A stretch of 64,000 nucleotides of DNA from sequence record MW349128.1. One strand, 5' to 3'. Below, piece by piece: positions 12,275 to 64,000 of this stretch; the stretch's first letter is position 1; each line of letters opens with the position of its first letter. The DNA comes from Staphylococcus phage Machias. Made by a program: the position numbers and the translations under genes. The notes below the pieces were generated by a model. That model did no database searches. It was not told where the DNA came from and worked only from the letters and a program-made list of their open reading frames with translations.

Positions 12275-12406
12275 AATATTTCACATCTCTTTCTTAGATT
12301 TATTTAGTTTATTAATAAATAGTATGTTTTGTTAATGATAGTTTAAAAATTTTAATAATAAAGAATAACTAGATTTTTATAATTATGTAGGAGGTTAGTA
12401 AACCAA

Positions 12407-13409
12407 ATGACAACAGAATTAAAGAATAAAGAAGAAAGAAAAAGAGCTTTAACTGGATATTTAGAACAATTGGTATGGATGGTTCAAAAGAATAATCCTG
12501 ATTTTGATAAAGAAGAAATATTAAAAGAATGTAGAGAATTTGTAAAAGAAAATGTTAAACCTGTTATGACAGAGGTATCAGGTCAAGAAATGAATGTTGA
12601 TTCTTTATTACGTACAGTTATTAATTCAAATTTAATAGTAACTGGATCAGGTTCGATTTATCAAACACAATCACAAAGAAAAAATTTAAATGCAGAGATG
12701 TTAAAAGACTTCATTGATTCACGTAAAGTAGCTAAACATAATATGTTTATAAGTAAAGGTGTAGACGATGTTAAATATCATAAATATATGAATGAACAAA
12801 AAACAATTAAGATCTTGGCTAATAGTTACTATGGTGCTATGATACAAGGAAATAGTATTTTCTATGATCCTTATTCAGGACCTGCTATCACATATAGTGG
12901 TGTTGATATTGTTACGACTTCAGCAATAGCTTTAGAAAGATTTATAGGTAGTAAAATATTCTTTATGAATATTAGTGAGATTTATAATTATATCGTAAGA
13001 ATATGTCAAGAAGAATATAAAGATCATGATATTAAGATAAATTCAGTTCCTACTGATAATGAAATATTAAAAGGTTTATTGGATAACGTAGAATATAATT
13101 TCTCTGAAGATGAAGAAAATGATTTAAAAGAATTCTTTAGTAATTTAACTCAAGATGAGAAAAATAGAGTTTATTTTAAAAATAATCTTTATGGTTTATT
13201 AGATCACACTGATATATTTGATAATAAAATTAGTAAAATGACAGGTAGAGAAGATTTCTTAGATCCGAACGAACCACCTGAAGATATGATACCATTATTA
13301 GATGAATTATTTGATATATTAGAAGACTGGGTTATTTATAATTATCAAGATTACAATAGAATGTATAGAATGAATTATAAAAAACGTAGAAGTGTACTTA
13401 CAATCGATT
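12407..13409 (+). CDS. DNA polymerase family B, C-terminal subunit, exon 1 (motif B KILANSYYGAM, degenerate motif C region, KKRRSVL = KKRY motif)
   Basis: alignment to T4 gp43 (KxxxNSxYG, ...KKRYALNVWD); own strong RBS aggagg and ATG; exon ends at CGATT (13405..13409), which pairs with intron IGS GGTCG. Confidence 0.75.
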
Positions 13410-14050
13410 ATGATAACATGGTCGCTGCTTAAAGTAATTTAAGTTGATTCACATTATTAATTGCTGAGAAAGTATTTATTAAATTAATCAGCATCAATCA
13501 ATATGATTGTTCAACGACTAAATATAATGATACTCATAAAGAGTATATGATATAGTCTATTTTATATTTAAAAATATAATATTAAAGACAGATAGTAACT
13601 TCGTACATTTAGATCCATTATATCAAAAAATGAAAGAAAAGAAACCTGAAGATTTCCCTATTGCAGAAAATGGTTTAGAAGATAAATTAGAACAACGTGT
13701 AGGTAATATATCTATTATTAACTATCAAATTACTAAATTGCTAGAATTATCTTATCATAGATTCTGTAAAGATTTAGGATTAGAAGATGAACATTTAGGT
13801 GTTATATCTATGAAAAATGAGTATGTAAATGCTCCAGTATACAGTAATGTGTATTAGTAAATATTATTAATTGCTGAGACAAAATAAAATTAATCAGCAT
13901 CTTCAAATAATGAAGTTCAACGACTAAATATAATAATTCTTAATAATAAAGAATATGATATAGTCTAGTCTTATATTTAAAATATAAGTATAAACGTTTT
14001 ACTTGACAAACAGTTAACAACAGATAAAAAGAAAACTTATGCTTCATCAG
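13410..14050 (+). mobile_element. composite (twin/tandem) group I intron region: core A 13410..~13625, internal ORF 13630..13857, core B ~13825..14050
   Basis: two complete copies of P3-P4 (ATTAATTGCTGAG), P4'-P6 (AATCAGCATC..), J6/7-P7 (GTTCAACGACTAAAT), P8, P7' (GATATAGTCTA) and P9 hairpins; joining 13409 to 14051 restores ...KKRRSVLTID-L-IQQEGNLVQPPDLDVKGM, colinear with T4 ...KKRYALNVWDMEGTRYAEPKLKIMG. Confidence 0.6.
13630..13857 (+). other. 75-codon ORF between intron cores A and B: either an intron-borne ORF or an insertion exon of polB (unresolved)
   Basis: open frame with no SD sequence; does not align to the T4 gp43 KKRY-to-KIMG segment. Confidence 0.3.
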
Positions 14051-14697
14051 TAATTCAACAAGAGGGTAATTTAGTTCAACCACCAGACTTAGATGTTAAA
14101 GGTATGGCTATTAGAAAAGTTAATACTAATAAACGTATTAGAGAATTATTTACTGAAATATTACAAAAAGATATCTTAGAAAATAAAACTGGAATTGATA
14201 GAATTGGAATTATACGTAAATATAAAGAAATTGAAGAAATGATTAAAAAATCATTAGAGAATGGTGATATTGAATTCTTAAAACCTGGTAAAGCTAATAA
14301 CGCAGAAGTATATAAAGATCCTTATACACAAATGAATTATAGAGCAGCTTTATCATGGAATTTAATGTATCCAGATAAAGAAATATCTCTTCCAGCAAAT
14401 ATCTTAATGGTTAAATTAAATATTAAATCATTTGGAGATATTAAGGATAAAGTTGATGATGAAGAATTATTAGATAAATTTAGAGAAGTATTTAGAAACG
14501 AAAGATTAGTTAAAAATGGAATGAATGTAATTGCAGTTGAAGGTAATACAATTCCTGAAGAATTTAGACCTTTTATTGATTATGATTCAATGATAGAAGA
14601 TCATATTAAACCAGGTAAAGATATTATTGAATCTATTGGAGTTAAAGTGTTAGAATCTTCAAATAGTTCTTTCGTATCAAATATGGTTAAATTTTAA
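14051..14697 (+). CDS. DNA polymerase family B, C-terminal subunit, last exon (thumb region)
   Basis: in-frame continuation ...QQEGNLVQPPDLDVKGMAIRKVNTNK aligns to T4 MEGTRYAEPKLKIMGLETQKSSTPK; omega-G at 14050. Confidence 0.65.
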
Positions 14698-14720
14698 AAA
14701 AAAAAAGGAGGGTATATTTA

Positions 14721-17805: not shown

Positions 17806-18957
17806 ATGAAAGTAGATATGATAGATATTGAACAAGTCATAACTGATACAAATGCTAAAGAAGTAACCAATCCTGTATTTTTCGATTCAGGTATACTACC
17901 AAAAGAAGATGGTTTATTTTCATATGATATATTTGGTTTAATAGGTACTCCTGAAAGAAAAACCAATTTAGGTTGGATTAATTTAAAGGATAAATACCTT
18001 AATCCGGTGGCTTATAAAGCATTAAAAGATTTAGATAAAAATATTGAACTATGTATTCAGGGTTCAGAGTATTTTAAAGTAGAAAAAGGTCAATTAGTTC
18101 CTTCAGAAGATGGAGATACTGGACTGAATTTCTTATATGAAGTATTTGATGATTTAAAATTTAGAAAGAATGATTCTCGTATTAGATCTGAAAAAATTGA
18201 TATGATTAAAAATACAGATAAGCAAAAAATATTTGTAGATAAATGGCTAGTAATACCTGCTTTTTATAGAGACTTTAATCCTAATGAAACTTCAGGAGAA
18301 ATTCAAGATACTGAAGAAGTTAATAATATGTATTCTTCTATTATACGTTCTGTAGATGCTATTAGTTTTAATTCTTTTGGTTTTATTGCTAACAGTACTA
18401 AATATAATATACAAAATACATTATTTGAAATATATCAGAAATTTACTTCAGGAGAATTATCAGGTAAAACTGGTTTTATGCAAAAACGTATATTGGGTAA
18501 AACAGTAGATAATAGTACTCGTGCAGTTATTTCTTCACCTAAAATTAATTCGAATAGATGGGATGAAATGCAGATAGAGTTTGGTGAGTTAGGTGTACCA
18601 TTAACTCAATTAGTTACCTTATTTTTACCATTCTTTAATAAGTATATAATTGATTTTATTGAACTTCATAAAGATGCTTTCCAAACAGCTACTGGAAATG
18701 ATGAGAAAGAATTATCATTAGAAGAAGTGTATGAACAATTCGATGATAAATCTATTAAGAATATGCTAGAATTCTTTATTAAAGATCCTAATGAAAGATT
18801 TAGTCCTATATATGTAAATGATAGAGAAGGTAAACGCCATAAAGTTAAATTATTTGAAAAAACTTTGGGTAGAGATTTTACTGTAATTGATTTACTTTAT
18901 ATTGCTGCAACCGAAATAGTAGAAGATAAGCATGTTATGTATTCAAGATATCCGATT
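17806..18957 (+). CDS. multisubunit RNA polymerase beta-prime-like subunit, N-terminal half, exon 1
   Basis: PKEDGLFSYDIFG ~ E. coli KPERDGLFCARIFGP; GKTGFMQKRILGKTVDNSTRAVIS ~ [23 protein letters not shown]; exon ends MYSRYPI (NRAPTLH region) at CGATT 18953..18957. Confidence 0.75.
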
Positions 18958-19152
18958 AATAAAATGGTCGCTGCTTAAAGTGATTTAAGTTGATAAACAT
19001 TGTTAATTGCTGAAATACTATTAATAAAGTTAATCAGCATCAATTAAATATAATTGTTCAACGACTAAATGCAATGATACTATTTAATAGTATATAATAT
19101 AGTCTAATTTATATAATACTTATATAAATATAATAAATGCGAAAATTTCTTG
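18958..19152 (+). mobile_element. group I intron C (compact, no ORF)
   Basis: first 31 nt identical to intron A (ATGGTCGCTGCTTAAAGTRATTTAAGTTGAT, IGS GGTCG); cores TTAATTGCTGAAA / AATCAGCATC / GTTCAACGACTAAATGC / ATATAGTCTA; 3' end approximate. Confidence 0.65.
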
Positions 19153-19341
19153 AACGTAGCACCTGCTAAAATTAAAATATTAACTACTGTTGATACTATT
19201 CCAGAAATAATTTTAGATGATATAGTATTAAAAGATTACCCTAAAGTAGTAAGAGAGTATCCTGTTGATGAAGATATTTTCTTAGATACTGCAATCATAC
19301 ACAATTCATATGCTCAAGCACTTGGTGCAGATTTTGATGGC
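19153..19341 (+). CDS. RNAP beta-prime N-half, exon 2 (ends ...AQALGADFDG = first part of the NADFDGD catalytic motif)
   Basis: in-frame segment ending GADFDG immediately before intron D; start boundary uncertain (ORF track 19150..19365 reads through into the intron). Confidence 0.5.
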
Positions 19342-19491
19342 AAAATTTTATATTACCATCATTAAATAATATTAATTGCTGGAAAATCTAATAAGATAAT
19401 CAGCATCAACTTAATAAAAGTTGTTCAACGACTAAATATATTACTAAAGAAGATATAGTCTAATTATATGTAAATACATGTATATAAAATG
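19342..19491 (+). mobile_element. group I intron D (compact, no ORF)
   Basis: ATTAATTGCTGGAAAA / AATCAGCATCAAC / GTTCAACGACTAAATAT / GATATAGTCTAATT; omega-G at 19491. Confidence 0.65.
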
Positions 19492-19635
19492 GATATGATT
19501 TCAATACGCTCTTTATGGTCTGTAGAAGCAAATAAAGAAGCTGATAAACTTATTAATAAGAAAACTAATTACTTAAACTACACAGGAAATAGTATACGTG
19601 GAGTTGGTAATGAGAGTAAGTTTGTATGCTCTCAA
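19492..19635 (+). CDS. RNAP beta-prime N-half, exon 3 (DMISIRSLWSVEANKEADKLI...)
   Basis: aligns to E. coli [21 protein letters not shown] directly after NADFDG; the 3' end could lie anywhere 19606..19635. Confidence 0.5.
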
Positions 19636-19760
19636 TAAATTTCATTAATTGCTGGAAAAACAAAATTAATCAGCATCAACTTAATAAAAGTTGTTCAACG
19701 ACTAAATATGAAAATGATTTAAATATCATAAGATATAGTCTAATTATCATAAATATATGG
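19636..19760 (+). mobile_element. group I intron E (compact, no ORF)
   Basis: ATTAATTGCTGGAAAAA / AATCAGCATCAAC / GTTCAACGACTAAATATG / GATATAGTCTAATT, nearly identical to intron D; boundaries approximate. Confidence 0.6.
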
Positions 19761-19781
19761 TACAAGCTTTATATTCTTTAA
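19761..19781 (+). CDS. RNAP beta-prime N-half, tiny terminal exon (YKLYIL-stop ~ E. coli LGLYYMT), ends the N-terminal beta-prime polypeptide
   Basis: in-frame continuation after the omega-G at 19760; stop at 19779..19781; the beta-prime C-half is encoded separately at 39794. Confidence 0.3.
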   Translation, partial: YKLYIL

Positions 19782-19802
19782 CTAAAGAATAATTTAAAAA
19801 TT

Positions 19803-32813: not shown

Positions 32814-33282
32814 ATGGGTCGTTTTATAAAATCAACATATTTGAATAAAAAAGAAACATCTAATAAAAAAGAGAAAGTAGTAATGGTTGTTAAGGAAGAA
32901 GATGGAACTAAGAAACATATGGAAATAGTAGATCCTATGATGCATTATTATGTAACTAAAGATGAACATTGGTTACCACCTAATATAGTTGTAGGTTCTA
33001 TGGCTAAAGAAAAAGTTAGAACTGTACACTGTAAACATAAAGATGTTATTAAATCTATAGTTAGAGAAGCAGGTAATGCTCAAGATAAATCAGAATACGA
33101 TAGAATATTATCTTCAGGTAATTATGAAGAGTTTAGAAAATTAAAAGATTTTCATTTAATGAATAATGTTCATGGATCTGATATTAATATTGAAGATTAT
33201 AATATTAATGAGTATATCAAACAAAACTTAGATAGTAAAGTTGGAATTGATATATGTCTATTTGATATAGAGGTAGATGGAT
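32814..33282 (+). CDS. DNA polymerase family B, N-terminal subunit, exon 1 (Exo I motif FDIEVDG)
   Basis: RBS aggagg; ICLFDIEVDG ~ T4 gp43 ANCDIEVTGD; the exon end is approximate, chosen so the product reads DIEVDG-F-PEPGMAE against T4 DIEVTGDKFPDPMKAE. Confidence 0.7.
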
Positions 33283-34070
33283 CGCAAACAGTTGGGTTAA
33301 TTTAGGTAGCTCAATTAAAAAATTATTAATTGCTGAAAAGTTTAAAAATAATCAGCATCACTAATTTAGTGTTCAACGACTAAATATAATAATATAATTC
33401 AAATATACTTCCTTTATAAAAGGAGGAAAATAATGAAAGAAATATGGAAAGACATTAAAGATTTTGAAAATTACTATAAAATATCCAATACTGGTAAAGT
33501 TAAATCGGTTTCAAGATATGTATATAATGATTCTTTAAAAGGTAAAGATAAAAGAATGCTTATTAAAGAAAGAGTATTAAAAACAAGAATAAATAAAAAT
33601 GGTTATGAAGATGTTCAATTATATAGAAATAATAAGAAGCATACAAGAAGAATACACCGTTTAGTTGCAGAGAATTTTATCGAAAATAAAGATATTGATA
33701 AAAATGTAGTTAATCATATTGACGGTAATAAATTAAATAACAATTTATCTAATTTAGAATGGATGTCAGTATTAGAAAATAATTTACATGCTATAGAAAA
33801 TAATCTTCATAAAACTGATAAAATGGAAGAATCATTAAAAAAGAGAAGAAAACCAGTAGCACAAATAGATAAAGAAACAGATAAAATTATAAAAGAATAT
33901 GAAAGTGCTAAATTTGCAGCGGAAGAATTAAATATAGATAGAAAAGGAATACAAGCAGTTGCAAATGGTTATAGAAATAGTAAAACTTACAAAAATTTTA
34001 AATGGAAATATATTTGAATTTAAAAGATATAGTCTAATCTTTATACAATTGTATAAAGTTAATATAAATG
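33283..34070 (+). mobile_element. group I intron F with an HNH homing endonuclease ORF inserted between P7 and P7'
   Basis: ATTAATTGCTGAAAAG / AATCAGCATC / GTTCAACGACTAAATAT before the ORF and GATATAGTCTAATC (34026..34036) after it. Confidence 0.65.
33433..34017 (+). CDS. intron-encoded HNH homing endonuclease (NUMOD4-like N-terminus, HNH_3 core, C-terminal NUMOD1/IENR1-like HTH)
   Basis: MKEIWKDIKDFENYYKISNTGKVKS; VNHIDGNKLNNNLSNLEW; RBS aaaggagg. Confidence 0.8.
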   Translation: MKEIWKDIKDFENYYKISNTGKVKSVSRYVYNDSLKGKDKRMLIKERVLKTRINKNGYEDVQLYRNNKKHTRRIHRLVAENFIENKDIDKNVVNHIDGNKLNNNLSNLEWMSVLENNLHAIENNLHKTDKMEESLKKRRKPVAQIDKETDKIIKEYESAKFAAEELNIDRKGIQAVANGYRNSKTYKNFKWKYI

Positions 34071-34360
34071 TCCCTGAACCAGGAATGGCTGAAATTAATA
34101 TTATAACTGTAGTTGATTGGAGTAAACGTAAATGTTTAACATTTGCATTAAAATATGATACAGATAATTATAATGAAGTTATGACAGATAAAACTAAATT
34201 AATGGAAGATCTAAATAATATTTATAATAATAAAGATAGCGAGATTGGAGAAGATTTAGGTTTAGAATTTGAAATATATGAATTAGATACTGAAATGGAA
34301 ATTATTAAATCATTCTTATACTATATTAATGAAATTAGTAAGCCTGATATATGTACGGCT
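34071..34360 (+). CDS. DNA polymerase family B, N-terminal subunit, exon 2 (ends ...KPDICTA before Exo II)
   Basis: PEPGMAEINIITVVDWSKRKCLTFAL ~ T4 PDPMKAEYEIDAITHYDSIDDRFYVFDL; the exon end ACGGCT pairs with intron IGS GGTCGT. Confidence 0.7.
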
Positions 34361-35447
34361 TGAGAAACACACTGGGTCGTGTAAAACCTTTTTAATTGCT
34401 GGAACGTCCTTATTGCTTAGTGAGCTACAACGTGACTGGTAACGGTGAGCGTGATATGCTTAAAAATCATTAAGATTGGATAATCAGCAGCGAAGACTCT
34501 ATAAATCCTTTTCAAGAAAGGATGATTAATATGAATTATAAACCGAAAAATAAAAAGAAAATAACCAATGAAGATTGGAAAGAAATTGTCAAAGAATTAG
34601 GTAATGATGAATATGAAGTATTAGGAGATTACCTGGGTACAAAAAACAAAATTGAAATGAAACATAAAATATGTGGAGAGACATTTTTTATGACACCAAA
34701 TAATTTTAAAATAAGTGAAAATCGTTGTCCTATCTGTTCTATAAAGAAAGTTTCAGAAAAACGTAGGAAGAAGACAAAGGAATTAAATGAAAAAATAAAA
34801 GAAGTTCTTGATGATTCTTATGAATTTAAATTGAACGGTAATGAAACTGTTCATAATAAAATAAAAGTAAAACATAAACAATGTGGAAACGAATACAGTG
34901 TTTTAATAAGACATATAATTTATGATAAAAATAAATGTAGTAAATGTCAAGATTTTGTTAATTCAAGAGATGAAAAAGAAATAAATAAATTCCTTATAGA
35001 AATGGGCGTAGATTTCGAAAGACAATATAAATTTGAAGATGACAAAGTAAAAAATCTTAGATTTGACTTTGCAGTTTTTAAAAATAACGAAATCAAACTT
35101 ATAGAATTTGATGGTGAATTTCATTTTAAAGAAAAATTTGGTGGACCAAAAGCATTTGAGAAAGTAGTATACAATGACTATCTCAAAAATAAATTTTGTT
35201 TTGACAATAACATAAAATTACTTAGAATACCTTATTGGGAAAGTAATAATAAAAAAGAAATAATAAAAAGGTTTATAGAGTAACGTTCAACGACTATCGA
35301 AAAGTGAGCATTATGTCGAGAGGACCTATTGCAATATAACTGAGTAGAGTACACTTTTAATTAAGTGGAAAAAGAAGGGTATGTAGAGTAACGTCTATAT
35401 ACAAGATATAGTCTATCTTTCAATAAAATATATTTTATTGAAATTTG
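34361..35447 (+). mobile_element. group I intron G carrying a homing endonuclease ORF between P6 and P7
   Basis: P1 pairing ACGGCU/GGUCGU; TTAATTGCTGGAACG ... TAATCAGCAGC; after the ORF come GTTCAACGACTATCG ... AGATATAGTCTATC and a P9 hairpin; omega-G at 35447 immediately before TGG AAT (WN of Exo II). Confidence 0.7.
34522..35283 (+). CDS. intron-encoded homing endonuclease, tandem Zn-finger-like DNA-binding modules plus Vsr/PD-(D/E)xK-like (DUF559-like) nuclease domain
   Basis: two HKxCGxxF...NxxxxxRCPICS / KCSKC repeats; C-terminal LRFDFAVFKNNEIKLIEFDGEFH; homologous to ORF 63260..64000(-). Confidence 0.55.
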   Translation: MINMNYKPKNKKKITNEDWKEIVKELGNDEYEVLGDYLGTKNKIEMKHKICGETFFMTPNNFKISENRCPICSIKKVSEKRRKKTKELNEKIKEVLDDSYEFKLNGNETVHNKIKVKHKQCGNEYSVLIRHIIYDKNKCSKCQDFVNSRDEKEINKFLIEMGVDFERQYKFEDDKVKNLRFDFAVFKNNEIKLIEFDGEFHFKEKFGGPKAFEKVVYNDYLKNKFCFDNNIKLLRIPYWESNNKKEIIKRFIE

Positions 35448-36389
35448 TGGAATCTAGATTTTGACTTTGCAACTATATTTGAAAGAATTAAAGTTAATGG
35501 AGAAGATCCAGCTGATTATTTCTGTTCTAAAGATTTACAAGATAAAAAAGCTTATTATAGATTAGATAAAAACGCTACAGATGCAGCTAATAGATCATCT
35601 ACGTTCGAAACTAACTCATACACTAACTGGATTGACCAATTAGCTTTATATGCAAATGTAAATAAACCAAATGGTGTTATGGAATCAGTTAAGTTAAATG
35701 ATGTTGGTGAAAAAGAAACTGGTATTAAGAAAGATGTATATGAAGGATCTATCTCTGATTTACATTTTAGAGATTATTATACATTCATTCTTTATAACAT
35801 TAAAGATACTGTATTAACTGCTTTAATAGAAAAGAACACTAATATGTTTGATTTATTATTCTCTATTGTAGATATGACTAGAACTAGACCAAGTAAAGCA
35901 CTTAAGAAAACTATTTGTTTAAGAAATCGTAGTTCTGTCTTCTTTGAAAATCAAGGATATGTATTAAGTAATAATCACTCTAAAATACTATCTGATCCAA
36001 ATGCAGATAAAATACGTGGTGGATTTGTAGCTAATATGACATTAATAGAACGTATGGGTGATATTTTAGTTAAAGGTAGAGATATTAGATCTAATAGATT
36101 ATTTAGTAATGTTTGTGACTTTGACTTGAGTTCACTATATCCTTCTATTATTAGAGGATTTAATATAACACCTGAAGGGCATATAGGTAAAATTCAAATA
36201 CAAGATAAATCTACAATGACAGTTCCTAAGTATGAAGAAGACAAATTAAATTACGACTTTAATACTGAATTTATTAGTAAATTTAACAGTCAAGATAGTG
36301 TAGCATTTGCTCAAGAATTTCATGGTTTACCTCCATTGAATATTGCAGCTAAGAAAGTATCTGATAAAATAAAAAGTAAAGGAGCTTAA
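35448..36389 (+). CDS. DNA polymerase family B, N-terminal subunit, exon 3 (Exo II WNLDFDF, Exo III YNIKDTV, motif A [12 protein letters not shown]); the polypeptide ends 70 aa after motif A
   Basis: colinear with T4 gp43 GWNVESF / YNIIAVY / [23 protein letters not shown]; stop at 36389 with no intron signature after it. Confidence 0.8.
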   Translation, partial: [313 protein letters not shown]

Positions 36390-61458: not shown

Positions 61459-62217
61459 TTAAATCATATCTTTTACTTTACGTTTTAATTCTATTAAAGC
61501 TTTATTTGTGAATAGCATCATATAAATATCAACTGTCATACGAGAGACAATACTTAATGGAGAGAATACAGCTTCGATTTCCTCATCAGGTCTATATTCC
61601 GCATAAGGAGATTCATTTGGAGGAGTTACATCAGCAACTACAGTTTTACAAGCTCCATAGAAACTAATTTTATCTCCAACACTCATATCATCTTCATACT
61701 CAGTGAAGATTTCAATAAGAACTCCATCAACTTTTTCTCCTTTAATTTTCTCTGTATTAATTTTATCAACTGCAGCGATATCTACATCAATACCAGGTAA
61801 AGTTTCTTTATTATTTTTAATTCCAGATTTATACTCTTTATATTTATCATTTGATTTTTTAATGTAATTATTAACTAATTTAGCTAAACTATCAGTCATA
61901 TTTTCAATATCATCATTATAATAAATATTAATCTTTTTAATATTACCTGTATATTTACTTCTAACAGCTCGGTTAGCTATATCTTGAATATCTTGTTCAA
62001 ATTCACTACCAATTTTATCTAATAAAGAACCAATACCTTCTTCATCGAATGAAGTTTCAAATATCATTAAAGGATCTCCTGTACGTACTTTCTGACCTTC
62101 TTTAACTATATATTGAATATTTGTGTTTGATGGAATATTTACTGTTTTCTTCATAGTAACTTTAGTAGACATTGCTTCAGACATACTACTAGAAATAATA
62201 GAACTATCTTCATAAGT
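61459..62217 (-). CDS. multisubunit RNA polymerase beta-like subunit, last exon in window (TYEDSSIISS ... GDKISFYGACKTVV ... PLSIVSRMTVDIYMM)
   Basis: aligns to E. coli beta NFEDSILVSE ... GDKMAGRHGNKGVIS ... PLGVPSRMNIGQILE; the polypeptide stops shortly after the SRM motif, so the beta C-terminus is missing or encoded elsewhere. Confidence 0.75.
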   Translation of the reverse strand, partial: TYEDSSIISSSMSEAMSTKVTMKKTVNIPSNTNIQYIVKEGQKVRTGDPLMIFETSFDEEGIGSLLDKIGSEFEQDIQDIANRAVRSKYTGNIKKINIYYNDDIENMTDSLAKLVNNYIKKSNDKYKEYKSGIKNNKETLPGIDVDIAAVDKINTEKIKGEKVDGVLIEIFTEYEDDMSVGDKISFYGACKTVVADVTPPNESPYAEYRPDEEIEAVFSPLSIVSRMTVDIYMMLFTNKALIELKRKVKDMI

Positions 62218-62397
62218 CATTTATATTAGCTATTATATTTTTATAATAGATTAGACTATATCAAATTCATTAGTATTAATGAATAATCATATTTAGTCGT
62301 TGAACTCTATAAATGTAGAGATGCTGATTAATTTAATATTTCTCAGCAATTAATAATTTTTTGACATTACATTACTATAATGAAAGGCATTTATAAT
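62218..62397 (-). mobile_element. group I intron Z (~180 nt, no ORF), interrupting the GYNFEDA-motif region of beta
   Basis: minus-strand cores TTAATTGCTGAGAAAT / AATCAGCATC / GTTCAACGACTAAATATG / GATATAGTCTAATC plus P9 hairpin; omega-G is the G of the ATG at 62218. Confidence 0.65.
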
Positions 62398-62799
62398 ACC
62401 ATATGAGCTAGCTACAGATACTTTAGATAATTTACCTGAAGTGAATTGAATATCATTATTTTTACCAGATCCAGCAAAGAAATTATTATTTTTAGCAAGT
62501 ATTTGACCTTTATTAAAAGTGTCATCTACATTAAATTGTGGATCAAGTTTATTAGATTGATAAAAACCTGAGTTAGAGTTTTTGGCTAATTTTTCAGATA
62601 TATCAACAATATCTTTTTCACCATTGATATATTCCACTGTCATTAAACCAGTTTTCTCGTTAATTTTTAATACTTTACCATCTTGTTTAGCTTTAAAAGC
62701 AAATGTATCTGATAATTGATAAGCTAAAGATTTATCAACACCAGATCCAACTAATGGTTTACTATTAGTTTTTGTTGGAATTACGTGCTTGGCTTGAGT
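62398..62799 (-). CDS. RNAP beta-like subunit, exon (TQAKHVIPTKTNSKPLVGSGVDKSLAYQLSD ... KGQILAKNN ... SSYG)
   Basis: aligns to E. coli beta [29 protein letters not shown] ... RGDVLADGPS ... WNGYN. Confidence 0.75.
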
Positions 62800-63011
62800 C
62801 AGATTATCTTAATACACTTTGTTTATTGTGTATTAGTTCTTAATGAACTTCTTTAAAATAAATTAAAGCTGAGACTATATCAAATACCATTTAGGTATAA
62901 TCTTATTTAGTCGTTGAACAATTTGATTGATGCTGATTAATTTAATTATTATTTTCTCAGCAATTAAAGATTTTTCTATTATTATATTACTATAATAAAG
63001 GGCATTCATAT
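62800..63011 (-). mobile_element. group I intron Y (~212 nt, no ORF)
   Basis: minus-strand TTAATTGCTGAGAAAAT / AATCAGCATCAATC / GTTCAACGACTAAATAAG / GATATAGTCTCAGC; 5' leader region ATATGAATGCCCTTTATTATAGTAAT shared with intron Z. Confidence 0.65.
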
Positions 63012-63176
63012 ACCAGTCATTCCTATACGTGGACTATCTGCATGTTTTGAGCTGAATGGGTTGAGCAATTCTAATGGAGTGTATAGAGATGTATCACTCG
63101 CATCTTTCTTACCGCCATCTGTATAACCTCTAGTGGATTTAATTAGTGAATCATATGAAAGCTGTCTGACCACTCC
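63012..63176 (-). CDS. RNAP beta-like subunit, exon (…LELLNPFSSKHADSPRIGMTG ~ E. coli SLIPFLEHDDANRALMGAN); 5' boundary unresolved
   Basis: relatively GC-rich conserved segment; joins to the next exon as MTG-TQAKHVIP ~ MGANMQRQAVP. Confidence 0.55.
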
Positions 63177-64000
63177 TCAAATATCTTCAATAATGGGCGT
63201 TAACCATTACCAGTTCTCTTATGAACTTCTTTAGGATTTCCCTAAAAGTTGAGACTATATCAAATACCATCAATTAATGGTATAGTTCTTTTTCCACTCA
63301 CTTGAGTGTACTCTACTTCATCAAATATATCTTTGAAATAATTTTTATTAAAATCAGTGTAATAATCTTTTTCATTTAATATTTTTTTATTTCTTATAAT
63401 GAGTATATTTGATTTTTCGATAGTCGTTGAACTATTTAAAATATCATGAAAGTTATCTAAAAAGAAATTGATATTATTTTTATTTATACGAATTAAAGTT
63501 AAATTATTTTTTAAACAAAAGTCATTTTTTATGTGGTCTTTTAGTGCATTTTCTTTGACATTTTCTAATTTTTGATATTTAGAATTATTTCTATACTTAA
63601 AATGTTGAACCCCATCAAATTCCAAAAGTATATTTTCGTTATTTAATGTAAATAAGAAATCAAATCTAAATCTATTAGTATTTTTAGAATAATAAAAATC
63701 ATTAAAAGACTTTTCTCTTTCATAATTTATATTATTTTCATCAAAGAATTTTCTAATTGATATTTCACCATTAGACTTAATAGCACAAATAGGACATCTG
63801 TGCCCTGCACTTACAAAACTGTTTGCACGCATCTCAAATACTTTACCACACTTATGATGTAATATTTTCATTTTAGTGAATAGATTAGTATATGTTTGTC
63901 CATCAATAAGAGAGTATTCATTTTTGCCTAAATATTCTATTTCTTTTTTAAAACTTTCAATTGTTCTTTTTTTTATATTTAGAACATTTAGGACACTTCT
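63177..64000 (-). mobile_element. group I intron X (3' part; the 5' part and P1-P6 lie beyond the window end) carrying a homing endonuclease ORF
   Basis: minus-strand GTTCAACGACTATCGAAAAA (63417..63436) and GATATAGTCTC (63249..63259) plus a P9 hairpin; 3' region homologous to intron G of polB. Confidence 0.55.
63260..64000 (-). CDS. intron-encoded homing endonuclease (homologue of 34522..35283), partial at the window edge; C-terminal coding overlaps the intron P7-P8-P7' core
   Basis: HHKCGKVFEMRANSFVSAGHRCPICA; FRFDFLFTLNNENILLEFDGVQH; open frame continues upstream of the ORF-track start 63871 (…TIESFKKEIEYLGKNEYSLIDG ~ N-terminus of 34522 ORF). Confidence 0.55.
   Translation of the reverse strand, partial: RSVLNVLNIKKRTIESFKKEIEYLGKNEYSLIDGQTYTNLFTKMKILHHKCGKVFEMRANSFVSAGHRCPICAIKSNGEISIRKFFDENNINYEREKSFNDFYYSKNTNRFRFDFLFTLNNENILLEFDGVQHFKYRNNSKYQKLENVKENALKDHIKNDFCLKNNLTLIRINKNNINFFLDNFHDILNSSTTIEKSNILIIRNKKILNEKDYYTDFNKNYFKDIFDEVEYTQVSGKRTIPLIDGI

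Follow-up and report, generated by a model that had tools for sequence, protein, structure and literature searches.

Group I introns of phages are known from the family A DNA polymerase gene of SPO1/SP82, from Bastille (I-BasI), from phages K and Twort, and from td, nrdB and nrdD of T4 (PMC2504315; Korn et al., bioRxiv 10.1101/2020.12.14.422802). The Staphylococcus jumbo phages related to the one studied here belong to the AR9/PBS1-like, uracil-DNA phages, and in the MarsHill-like phages DNA polymerase subunit genes, RNA polymerase subunit genes and others are disrupted by introns, with exon numbers that differ between phages (Korn et al., bioRxiv 10.1101/2020.12.14.422802). The polymerase CDS of MarsHill, CPT_MarsHill_108 (GenBank MW248466), is annotated as a two-piece join. 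We analysed a stretch of 64,000 nucleotides from Staphylococcus phage Machias (sequence record MW349128.1), referred to below as the window, which contains a C-terminal DNA polymerase gene with two introns, A and B. MarsHill has one intron in this gene and Machias two; the published introns of the MarsHill/Madawaska/Machias phages share clade, gene and insertion site with intron B. Polymerase introns of this phage clade are already published, and the two-intron arrangement adds another case.

Like the classical phage introns, A and B occupy the catalytic part of an essential gene where conservation is highest; unlike them, they carry neither a homing-endonuclease ORF nor P7.1/P7.2, their P5, P6 and P9 are minimal, and they measure only 174-179 nt, where the ribozyme part of a classical phage intron takes up roughly 250 nt or more. 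Twintrons of Euglena chloroplasts and the twin-ribozyme intron of Didymium likewise place two cores within a few hundred bases, yet a conserved coding exon stands between A and B, the structure of neither is broken by the other, and each occurs alone in a relative. The Azoarcus tRNA-Ile group I intron, at about 205 nt, is usually cited among the smallest self-splicing group I introns. A and B resemble it in their compact P1-P9 layout, the GNRA tetraloop on P2 and the lack of large peripheral domains, but differ in having core sequences of another subgroup type and a protein-coding host gene; the putative ribozymes are also smaller, at 174-179 nt, with relatives in the same genome family at 142-154 nt.

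Our analysis indicates, with a probability of about 90%, that two separate and independent group I introns flank a genuine 235-base polymerase exon, giving a three-exon gene whose transcript is predicted to be spliced (Table 1). Across 12400-14700 the window shares 97% identity with the Staphylococcus jumbo phages AH12 and PB50, and about 84% with S6, MarsHill, Madawaska, PALS_2 and DC4. The junctions were set by DNA alignment together with global alignment against homologues, including the uninterrupted genes of S6 and SA1, which read ...SVLTID|TDSNFVHLD...ISMKNE|FLLDKQLTTDKKKTYASSVIQQEGN... and whose intact product contains ...KKRRSVLTIDTDSNFVHLDPLYEKMK...HLGLISMKNEFLLDKQLTTDKKKTYASSVIQQEGN.... 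Exon 1 ends with the residues ...KKRRSVLTID (last bases ...ATCGAT), its ORF running on for 24 nt past the junction into intron A (YDNMVAA*), and exon 3 opens at 13997 with TTTTACTTGAC.... Joining the three exons produces an open frame of 645 residues, with predicted mRNA junctions ...ATCGAT|ACAGAT... and ...AATGAGT|TTTTAC..., predicted junction peptides SVLTIDTDSNFVHLDPLYQK and NEFLLDK, and the expected product sequences TDSNFVHLDPLYQK... and FLLDKQLTTDKK. Intron A interrupts the catalytic motif DTDS after its first residue (D|TDS).

Table 1. Positions of the polymerase exons, introns A and B with their helices, and other introns located in the window
Feature	Position	Strand	Description	Basis
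Exon 1	12407..13408	+	C-terminal DNA polymerase gene (family B, 'divergent' type)	ORF list; colinear with intron-free S6 and SA1; Pfam PF00136 and PF20286
Intron A	13409..13587	+	ORF-less group I, 179 nt	Lacking in S6, SA1 and MarsHill but shared with AH12 and PB50; Rfam, fold, helices
Intron A P1	13405-13412 with 13417-13424	+	U13408.G13421 at splice site	
Intron A P2		+	CUUAAA/UUUAAG, GUAA loop	
Intron A P3		+	CAUUAU/AUAAUG	
Intron A P4		+	UGCUGA/UCAGCA	
Intron A P6		+	CAAUCA/UGAUUG	
Intron A P7		+	GACUA/UAGUC	
Intron A P8		+	AUACUC/GAGUAU	
Intron A P9	13562-13568 with 13573-13579	+	Terminal G at 13587	
Exon 2	13588..13822	+	235 nt (78 codons + 1 nt), TDSNFVHLDPLYQKMKEKK...HLGVISMKNE(F)	Gap-free and in frame in six relatives
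Intron B	13823..13996	+	ORF-less group I, 174 nt	PB50 lacks exactly 13823-13996; Rfam; fold
Intron B P1	13819-13824 with 13829-13834	+	GAGU|AU / AUGCUC, U13822.G13829, GUAA loop	
Intron B P2		+	GUAUACA/UGUGUAU, GUAA loop	
Intron B P3		+	UAUUAU/AUAAUA	
Intron B P4		+	UGCUGA/UCAGCA	
Intron B P6		+	CUUCA/UGAAG	
Intron B P7		+	GACUA/UAGUC	
Intron B P8		+	AUUCUU/AAGAAU	
Intron B P9	13970-13977 with 13981-13988	+	Terminal G at 13996	
Exon 3	13997..14697	+	Starts (F)LLDKQLTTDKKKTYASSVIQQEGNLVQPPDLDVKGM...; TAA at 14695-14697	Colinear with S6, SA1 and PB50
RNA polymerase beta' intron	18957-19139	+	183 nt	tblastn with intact SA1 protein
RNA polymerase beta' intron	19342-19491	+	150 nt	tblastn with intact SA1 protein
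RNA polymerase beta' intron	19618-19759	+	142 nt	tblastn with intact SA1 protein
Polymerase N-terminal half, intron	~33296-34070	+	Larger group I, ORF-bearing	
Polymerase N-terminal half, intron	~34360-35445	+	Larger group I, ORF-bearing	
Minus-strand gene, intron	62397-62218	-	180 nt	
Minus-strand gene, intron	63011 to ~62800	-		
Minus-strand gene, intron		-	With ORF 63260-63871	

These boundaries differ from those of an earlier note on this DNA. The pairing it had proposed between exon 1 and the internal guide sequence exists (CGAU with GUCG), but the 5' splice site lies after U13408 and not, as it had stated, after 13409. Both U13408 and U13409 are able to pair with G, which explains the one-base error; only 13408 combined with G13587 gives the frame of the intron-free homologues. 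A junction 13409/13589, although in frame (IDSD), was rejected, for it would leave A as the last intron base and abolish the DTD motif. G14050, formerly taken as the 3' splice site, is not one; the introns end at G13587 and G13996. The second intron that the note had offered as an alternative is real but ends at 13996, so that 54 nt it had assigned to the intron belong to exon 3; this stretch (13997-14050) encodes the KKxY motif. Its further suggestion of two introns flanking a micro-exon or insertion exon was right as to introns and exon, yet the exon spans 13588-13822 and is native polymerase sequence, not an insertion.

Exon 2 is found in frame and free of gaps in S6, SA1, MarsHill, PB50, AH12 and LY01, with 87-98% identity and zero indels. 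Its synonymous/non-synonymous codon changes number 12/10 against S6, 15/10 against SA1, 5/1 against PB50 and 4/0 against AH12, and by this comparison the exons are under purifying selection. An RNA structure signal is absent from exon 2 (z +0.89). The open reading frame 13630-13857 does occur in the ORF list with its 75 codons, but it is no intron gene: it starts at an ATG inside exon 2, reads the rest of that exon and ends 35 nt into intron B, and it has no Pfam match of its own. The Pfam profile PF20286 (divergent family B DNA polymerase) matches the three-exon product in one stretch, covering profile positions 384-704 with 118.1 bits; a 13409/14051 join reaches 78.3 bits and is limited to positions 485-704, such that inclusion of exon 2 fills positions 384-484. 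Matches to the polymerase families PHROG 2927 and PHROG 262 likewise cross both exon junctions.

The comparison with T4 gp43 (from AF158101, gene 43), made by direct BLASTP against the spliced product, places exon 2 at about residues 618 to ~690 of the T4 protein, where it supplies the TDS of the catalytic DTDS; the claim that the ORF has no counterpart in the T4 polymerase is thereby reversed. T4 DTDS618 aligns with DTDS334 across the exon 1/exon 2 junction, and T4 KKRY702 aligns with KKKTY423 in exon 3, where KKKTYASSVIQQEGNLVQPPDLDVKGM of the spliced product faces T4 KKRYALNVYDMEDKRFAEPHLKIMGM from residue 702 onward. The spacing from DTDS to KKxY is 89 residues here versus 84 in T4. The residue-for-residue colinearity with gp43 reported earlier, which took the KKRR at the end of exon 1 for the KKRY of T4, is hence a chance look-alike. 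A phmmer search of the PDB with the spliced protein or its C-terminal part did not reach the RB69/T4 polymerase in the relevant region.

That two group I cores lie within 13410-14050, as the earlier note had recognized, was borne out by Rfam RF00028 matches at 13400-13579 (29.9 bits, E 1.4e-5) and 13831-13988 (17.3 bits, E 0.09), both of which cover model positions 1-253 with large deletions and stay below the gathering score of 50. The matches are visible only in a focused 901-nt scan; over the whole window, a gathering scan returned 0 matches and an E-value scan lost introns A and B to filters. The shortfall is due to deleted peripheral elements and not to the core: P3, P4, P6, P7 and P8 are found in both introns, and in 13 intron copies P4 and P7 are invariant while P3, P6 and P8 covary. 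The two cores form direct repeats 406-408 nt apart that are 76-79% identical, and the two P9 hairpins of the note are present (13562-13579 and 13970-13988). Both introns pair the upstream exon with an internal guide sequence in a P1 helix with U.G at the cleavage site, a pair present in all 12 family members with an assigned P1, and at the homologue-defined junctions both end in G. P8 directly follows P3' in A and B, in place of the P7.1/P7.2 of IA2 introns, and no ORF of at least 40 aa, and with it no homing endonuclease, lies wholly within 13409-13587 or 13823-13996. Since P7.1/P7.2 are missing and P5 is minimal in both introns, unaided self-splicing of A and B is not guaranteed.

The secondary structure was approached in three ways. 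Unconstrained RNAfold minimum free energy (MFE) predictions yield P1, P2, P4, P6, P7, P8 and P9 in both introns, with MFE z-scores of -1.78 for intron A and -3.19 for intron B. From an unsupervised MAFFT alignment of 11 family members, RNAalifold recovered P2, P4, P6, P7 and P8 with nine two-sided pair changes. In an anchor-based structural alignment of 13 introns, 39 of 62 pairs show two-sided changes and all controls are far lower; the hairpin helices in this alignment were hand-picked, making their 100% pairing partly a matter of construction, and it contains two known errors outside introns A and B (intron E has three exon bases in its P9, and intron F was given too short a 3' tail). P3 stands apart, as its strands were not fitted but set at constant distances from invariant anchors: it pairs in 100% of cells across the 13 introns, five of its six pairs having changed on both sides, and is an independent test of the fold. 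The P2 loop is always a GNRA tetraloop (GUAA, GUGA or GCGA). Intron A shows no obvious P10 pairing with exon 2.

The two introns have separate distributions among the relatives. S6 and SA1 lack both. PB50 carries intron A only, a global alignment showing precisely 13823-13996 to be missing, and its annotated CDS joins exon 2 and exon 3 in frame; MarsHill has an intron at the B site only, which is 72% identical to intron B and occupies the same position (...AATGAGT|...|TTTTAC...). Because A stands alone in PB50 and B alone in MarsHill, the two introns come and go independently. AH12 has both, Madawaska has a match to intron B inside its polymerase gene, and at the D|TDS site intron A is found only in AH12, PB50 and Machias. 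LY01 combines intron B with a different intron that lies 9 nt downstream of the A site; in the LY01 segment analysed, positions 2005-2170 contain this 154-nt P2-less intron after the S codon of DTDS (P1 GACAGU/GCUGUC), so that introns have settled at two neighbouring positions of DTDS in different phages. The window and PB50 differ most densely around the empty B site, with 5 mismatches in 23 nt upstream and 10 in 92 nt downstream (exon stretches 13800-13821 and 14002-14088) over a background of about 3%, the pattern expected of a co-conversion tract left by gain or loss of an intron.

Taken from the known group I family, the standard two-step pathway would operate on each intron separately. 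A and B would each fold alone, the guide sequence pairing with the last four nucleotides of the upstream exon (CGAU with GUCG in A, GAGU with GCUC in B) so that a U.G wobble would mark the cleavage site. There an external guanosine would attack, and the freed exon would then attack after G13587 or G13996, the reactions proceeding in either order. The predicted outcome is an mRNA for the 645-residue polymerase half with DTDS intact. With the catalytic motif divided and these introns also found in propagated phages, splicing would have to work in vivo, and we infer that it is both autocatalytic and efficient.

The earlier note's main proposal, that 13410-14050 is removed as one 641-nt composite intron or twintron, joining TID to L-IQQEGN... 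and leaving the ORF intron-borne, has next to no chance of being right. Two similar cores do lie close together, and the join keeps the frame and bears a superficial likeness to T4 KKRYALNVYDMEDKRFAEPHLKIMG; it nevertheless loses DTDS and the true KKKTY, at a cost of 40 bits and 100 PF20286 profile positions, and G14050 lies 62 nt past P9 of intron B, within coding sequence conserved in every relative. Both introns possess a P1 and a terminal G of their own, what lies between the cores (13588-13822) is present and in frame in the intron-free genes, and A and B are found separately in PB50 and MarsHill; a twintron is thus contradicted both by the 235-nt in-frame exon between the introns and by their not being inherited as a unit. 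Retention of the segment in frame in the mature message, which the note had named as the outcome that would overturn its own proposal, is what the comparative evidence points to. If the 5' site of intron A were sometimes joined to the 3' site of intron B, skipping exon 2 to give an alternative or regulatory product, the frame would shift, exon 2 being 235 nt (3n+1) long, with a stop after ...TIDFYLTNS* and a product devoid of TDS and the thumb domain. Cross-reaction between near-identical cores whose guides recognise only 4-6 nt is chemically conceivable, but the intron A guide GGUCG mismatches the GAGU end of exon 2 and the intron B guide GCUC mismatches the CGAU end of exon 1, and we regard exon skipping as extremely unlikely.

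Ribozymes that have decayed and no longer splice, leaving either a pseudogene or three separate polypeptides that assemble, are very unlikely as well. Such decay would agree with the sub-threshold Rfam scores, the short and very AT-rich helices, and a polymerase already split into two genes about 18 kb apart. It sits poorly with core elements that are invariant in 13 copies, with covarying helices, with exons under purifying selection, and with the isolation and propagation of AH12 and PB50, which bear the same introns. The separate pieces would also make poor proteins: the first 14 codons of exon 2 have no start codon, DTDS would be cut between D and T, and exon 3 begun at M14104 would lose its first 35 codons, KKKTY included. 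On the preferred reading of two independent introns around a polymerase exon, the ORFs 12407-13432, 13630-13857 and 14104-14697 should be annotated together as one 645-residue polymerase subunit; the closest GenBank records instead show separate 'hypothetical' proteins or two distinct polymerase proteins, and in the AH12 and PB50 records the A-site intron is unannotated and the pieces are given as separate CDS. The locus would add a further case of putatively self-splicing introns that interrupt an essential phage gene exactly within a catalytic motif (D|TDS), and both sites come with a natural presence/absence series.

Introns A and B are not alone. The intron closest to A is intron C of the RNA polymerase beta' gene (81% identical), not B (76%); A and C have a common guide sequence and CGAU exon end, and no further flanking similarity, a likeness that fits guide-directed (reverse-splicing) spread. 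Closely related copies in general share only the 4-nt exon/guide match, namely CGAU for A and C, GAGU for B and E, and GGU for F and G, which would point to spread by reverse splicing and not to endonuclease homing. The family measures 142-183 nt and lacks P7.1/P7.2, some members lacking also P2 and most of P9. In blastn searches, intron A matched 29 places in AH12, 19 in PB50, 30 in LY01, 11 in Madawaska and 9 in MarsHill, none of these copies reaching the Rfam gathering score, and there was no match in S6, PALS_2, DC4 or SA1. By this count, the intron burst is confined to part of the clade, and the DC4 paper, in which no introns were found with Rfam, fits the absence of the mini-intron family from S6-type genomes. 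Tentatively, and with a little less than an even chance in our estimation, A and B may be members of a miniaturised, ORF-less group I ribozyme family that multiplied in one branch of Staphylococcus jumbo phages.

The core of A and B, UAAUUGCUG...AUCAGCA...GUUCAACGACUAAAU...GAUAUAGUCU, also occurs in eight unrelated, low-GC IMG/VR viral contigs, which carry the exact pattern TAATTGCTG...ATCAGCA...GTTCAACGACTAAAT. The IMG/VR copies have full-size P5/P6, P7.1/P7.2 and often ORFs, and an element of the ACUCAAGUGAGUGGAAA type is present in them and in the ORF-bearing introns of the window. This comparison suggests that the Staphylococcus mini-introns are trimmed derivatives of a widespread phage intron type. 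Group I introns this small are missed by standard Rfam scans and are probably under-counted in AT-rich phage genomes. They are candidate minimal natural group I ribozymes and, if they splice unaided, would be among the smallest.

The window as a whole contains at least ten group I introns, small ORF-less ones and larger ORF-bearing ones, several of them very small (142-183 nt) and below the Rfam threshold. The RNA polymerase beta' gene (17806-19789, plus strand) holds three small ORF-less introns within about 800 nt, at the junctions RYPI|ENFLNV, ADFDG|DMISIR and GNES|VQALYSLTKE; the second interrupts the catalytic motif NADFDGD, P2 is missing and P9 nearly so in the 142-nt intron, and the last exon comprises only 10 codons. 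In the 150-nt intron (intron D; 19335-19365 and 19486-19497), the last exon base is apparently C and not U (GAT GGC|AAAA...), which gives an apparent C.A pair in P1 (UGAUGGC/ACCAUCA) instead of the near-universal U.G, and there is no G upstream of P4 as an alternative partner. The N-terminal half of the family B polymerase is a separate gene about 18 kb away (32814-36389, plus strand) that contains the exonuclease motif FDIEVDG and motif A, DLSSLYPS, and its two introns contain the ORFs 33433-34017 (HNH-like by eye) and 34522-35283; the split polymerase thus has four introns altogether. On the minus strand, at least three group I introns interrupt a gene at 61459-63900 that probably encodes an RNA polymerase subunit. 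The ORF in one of these, 63260-63871, resembles ORF 34522-35283, and the two small ones have in common the exon end GGU and the guide GCC.
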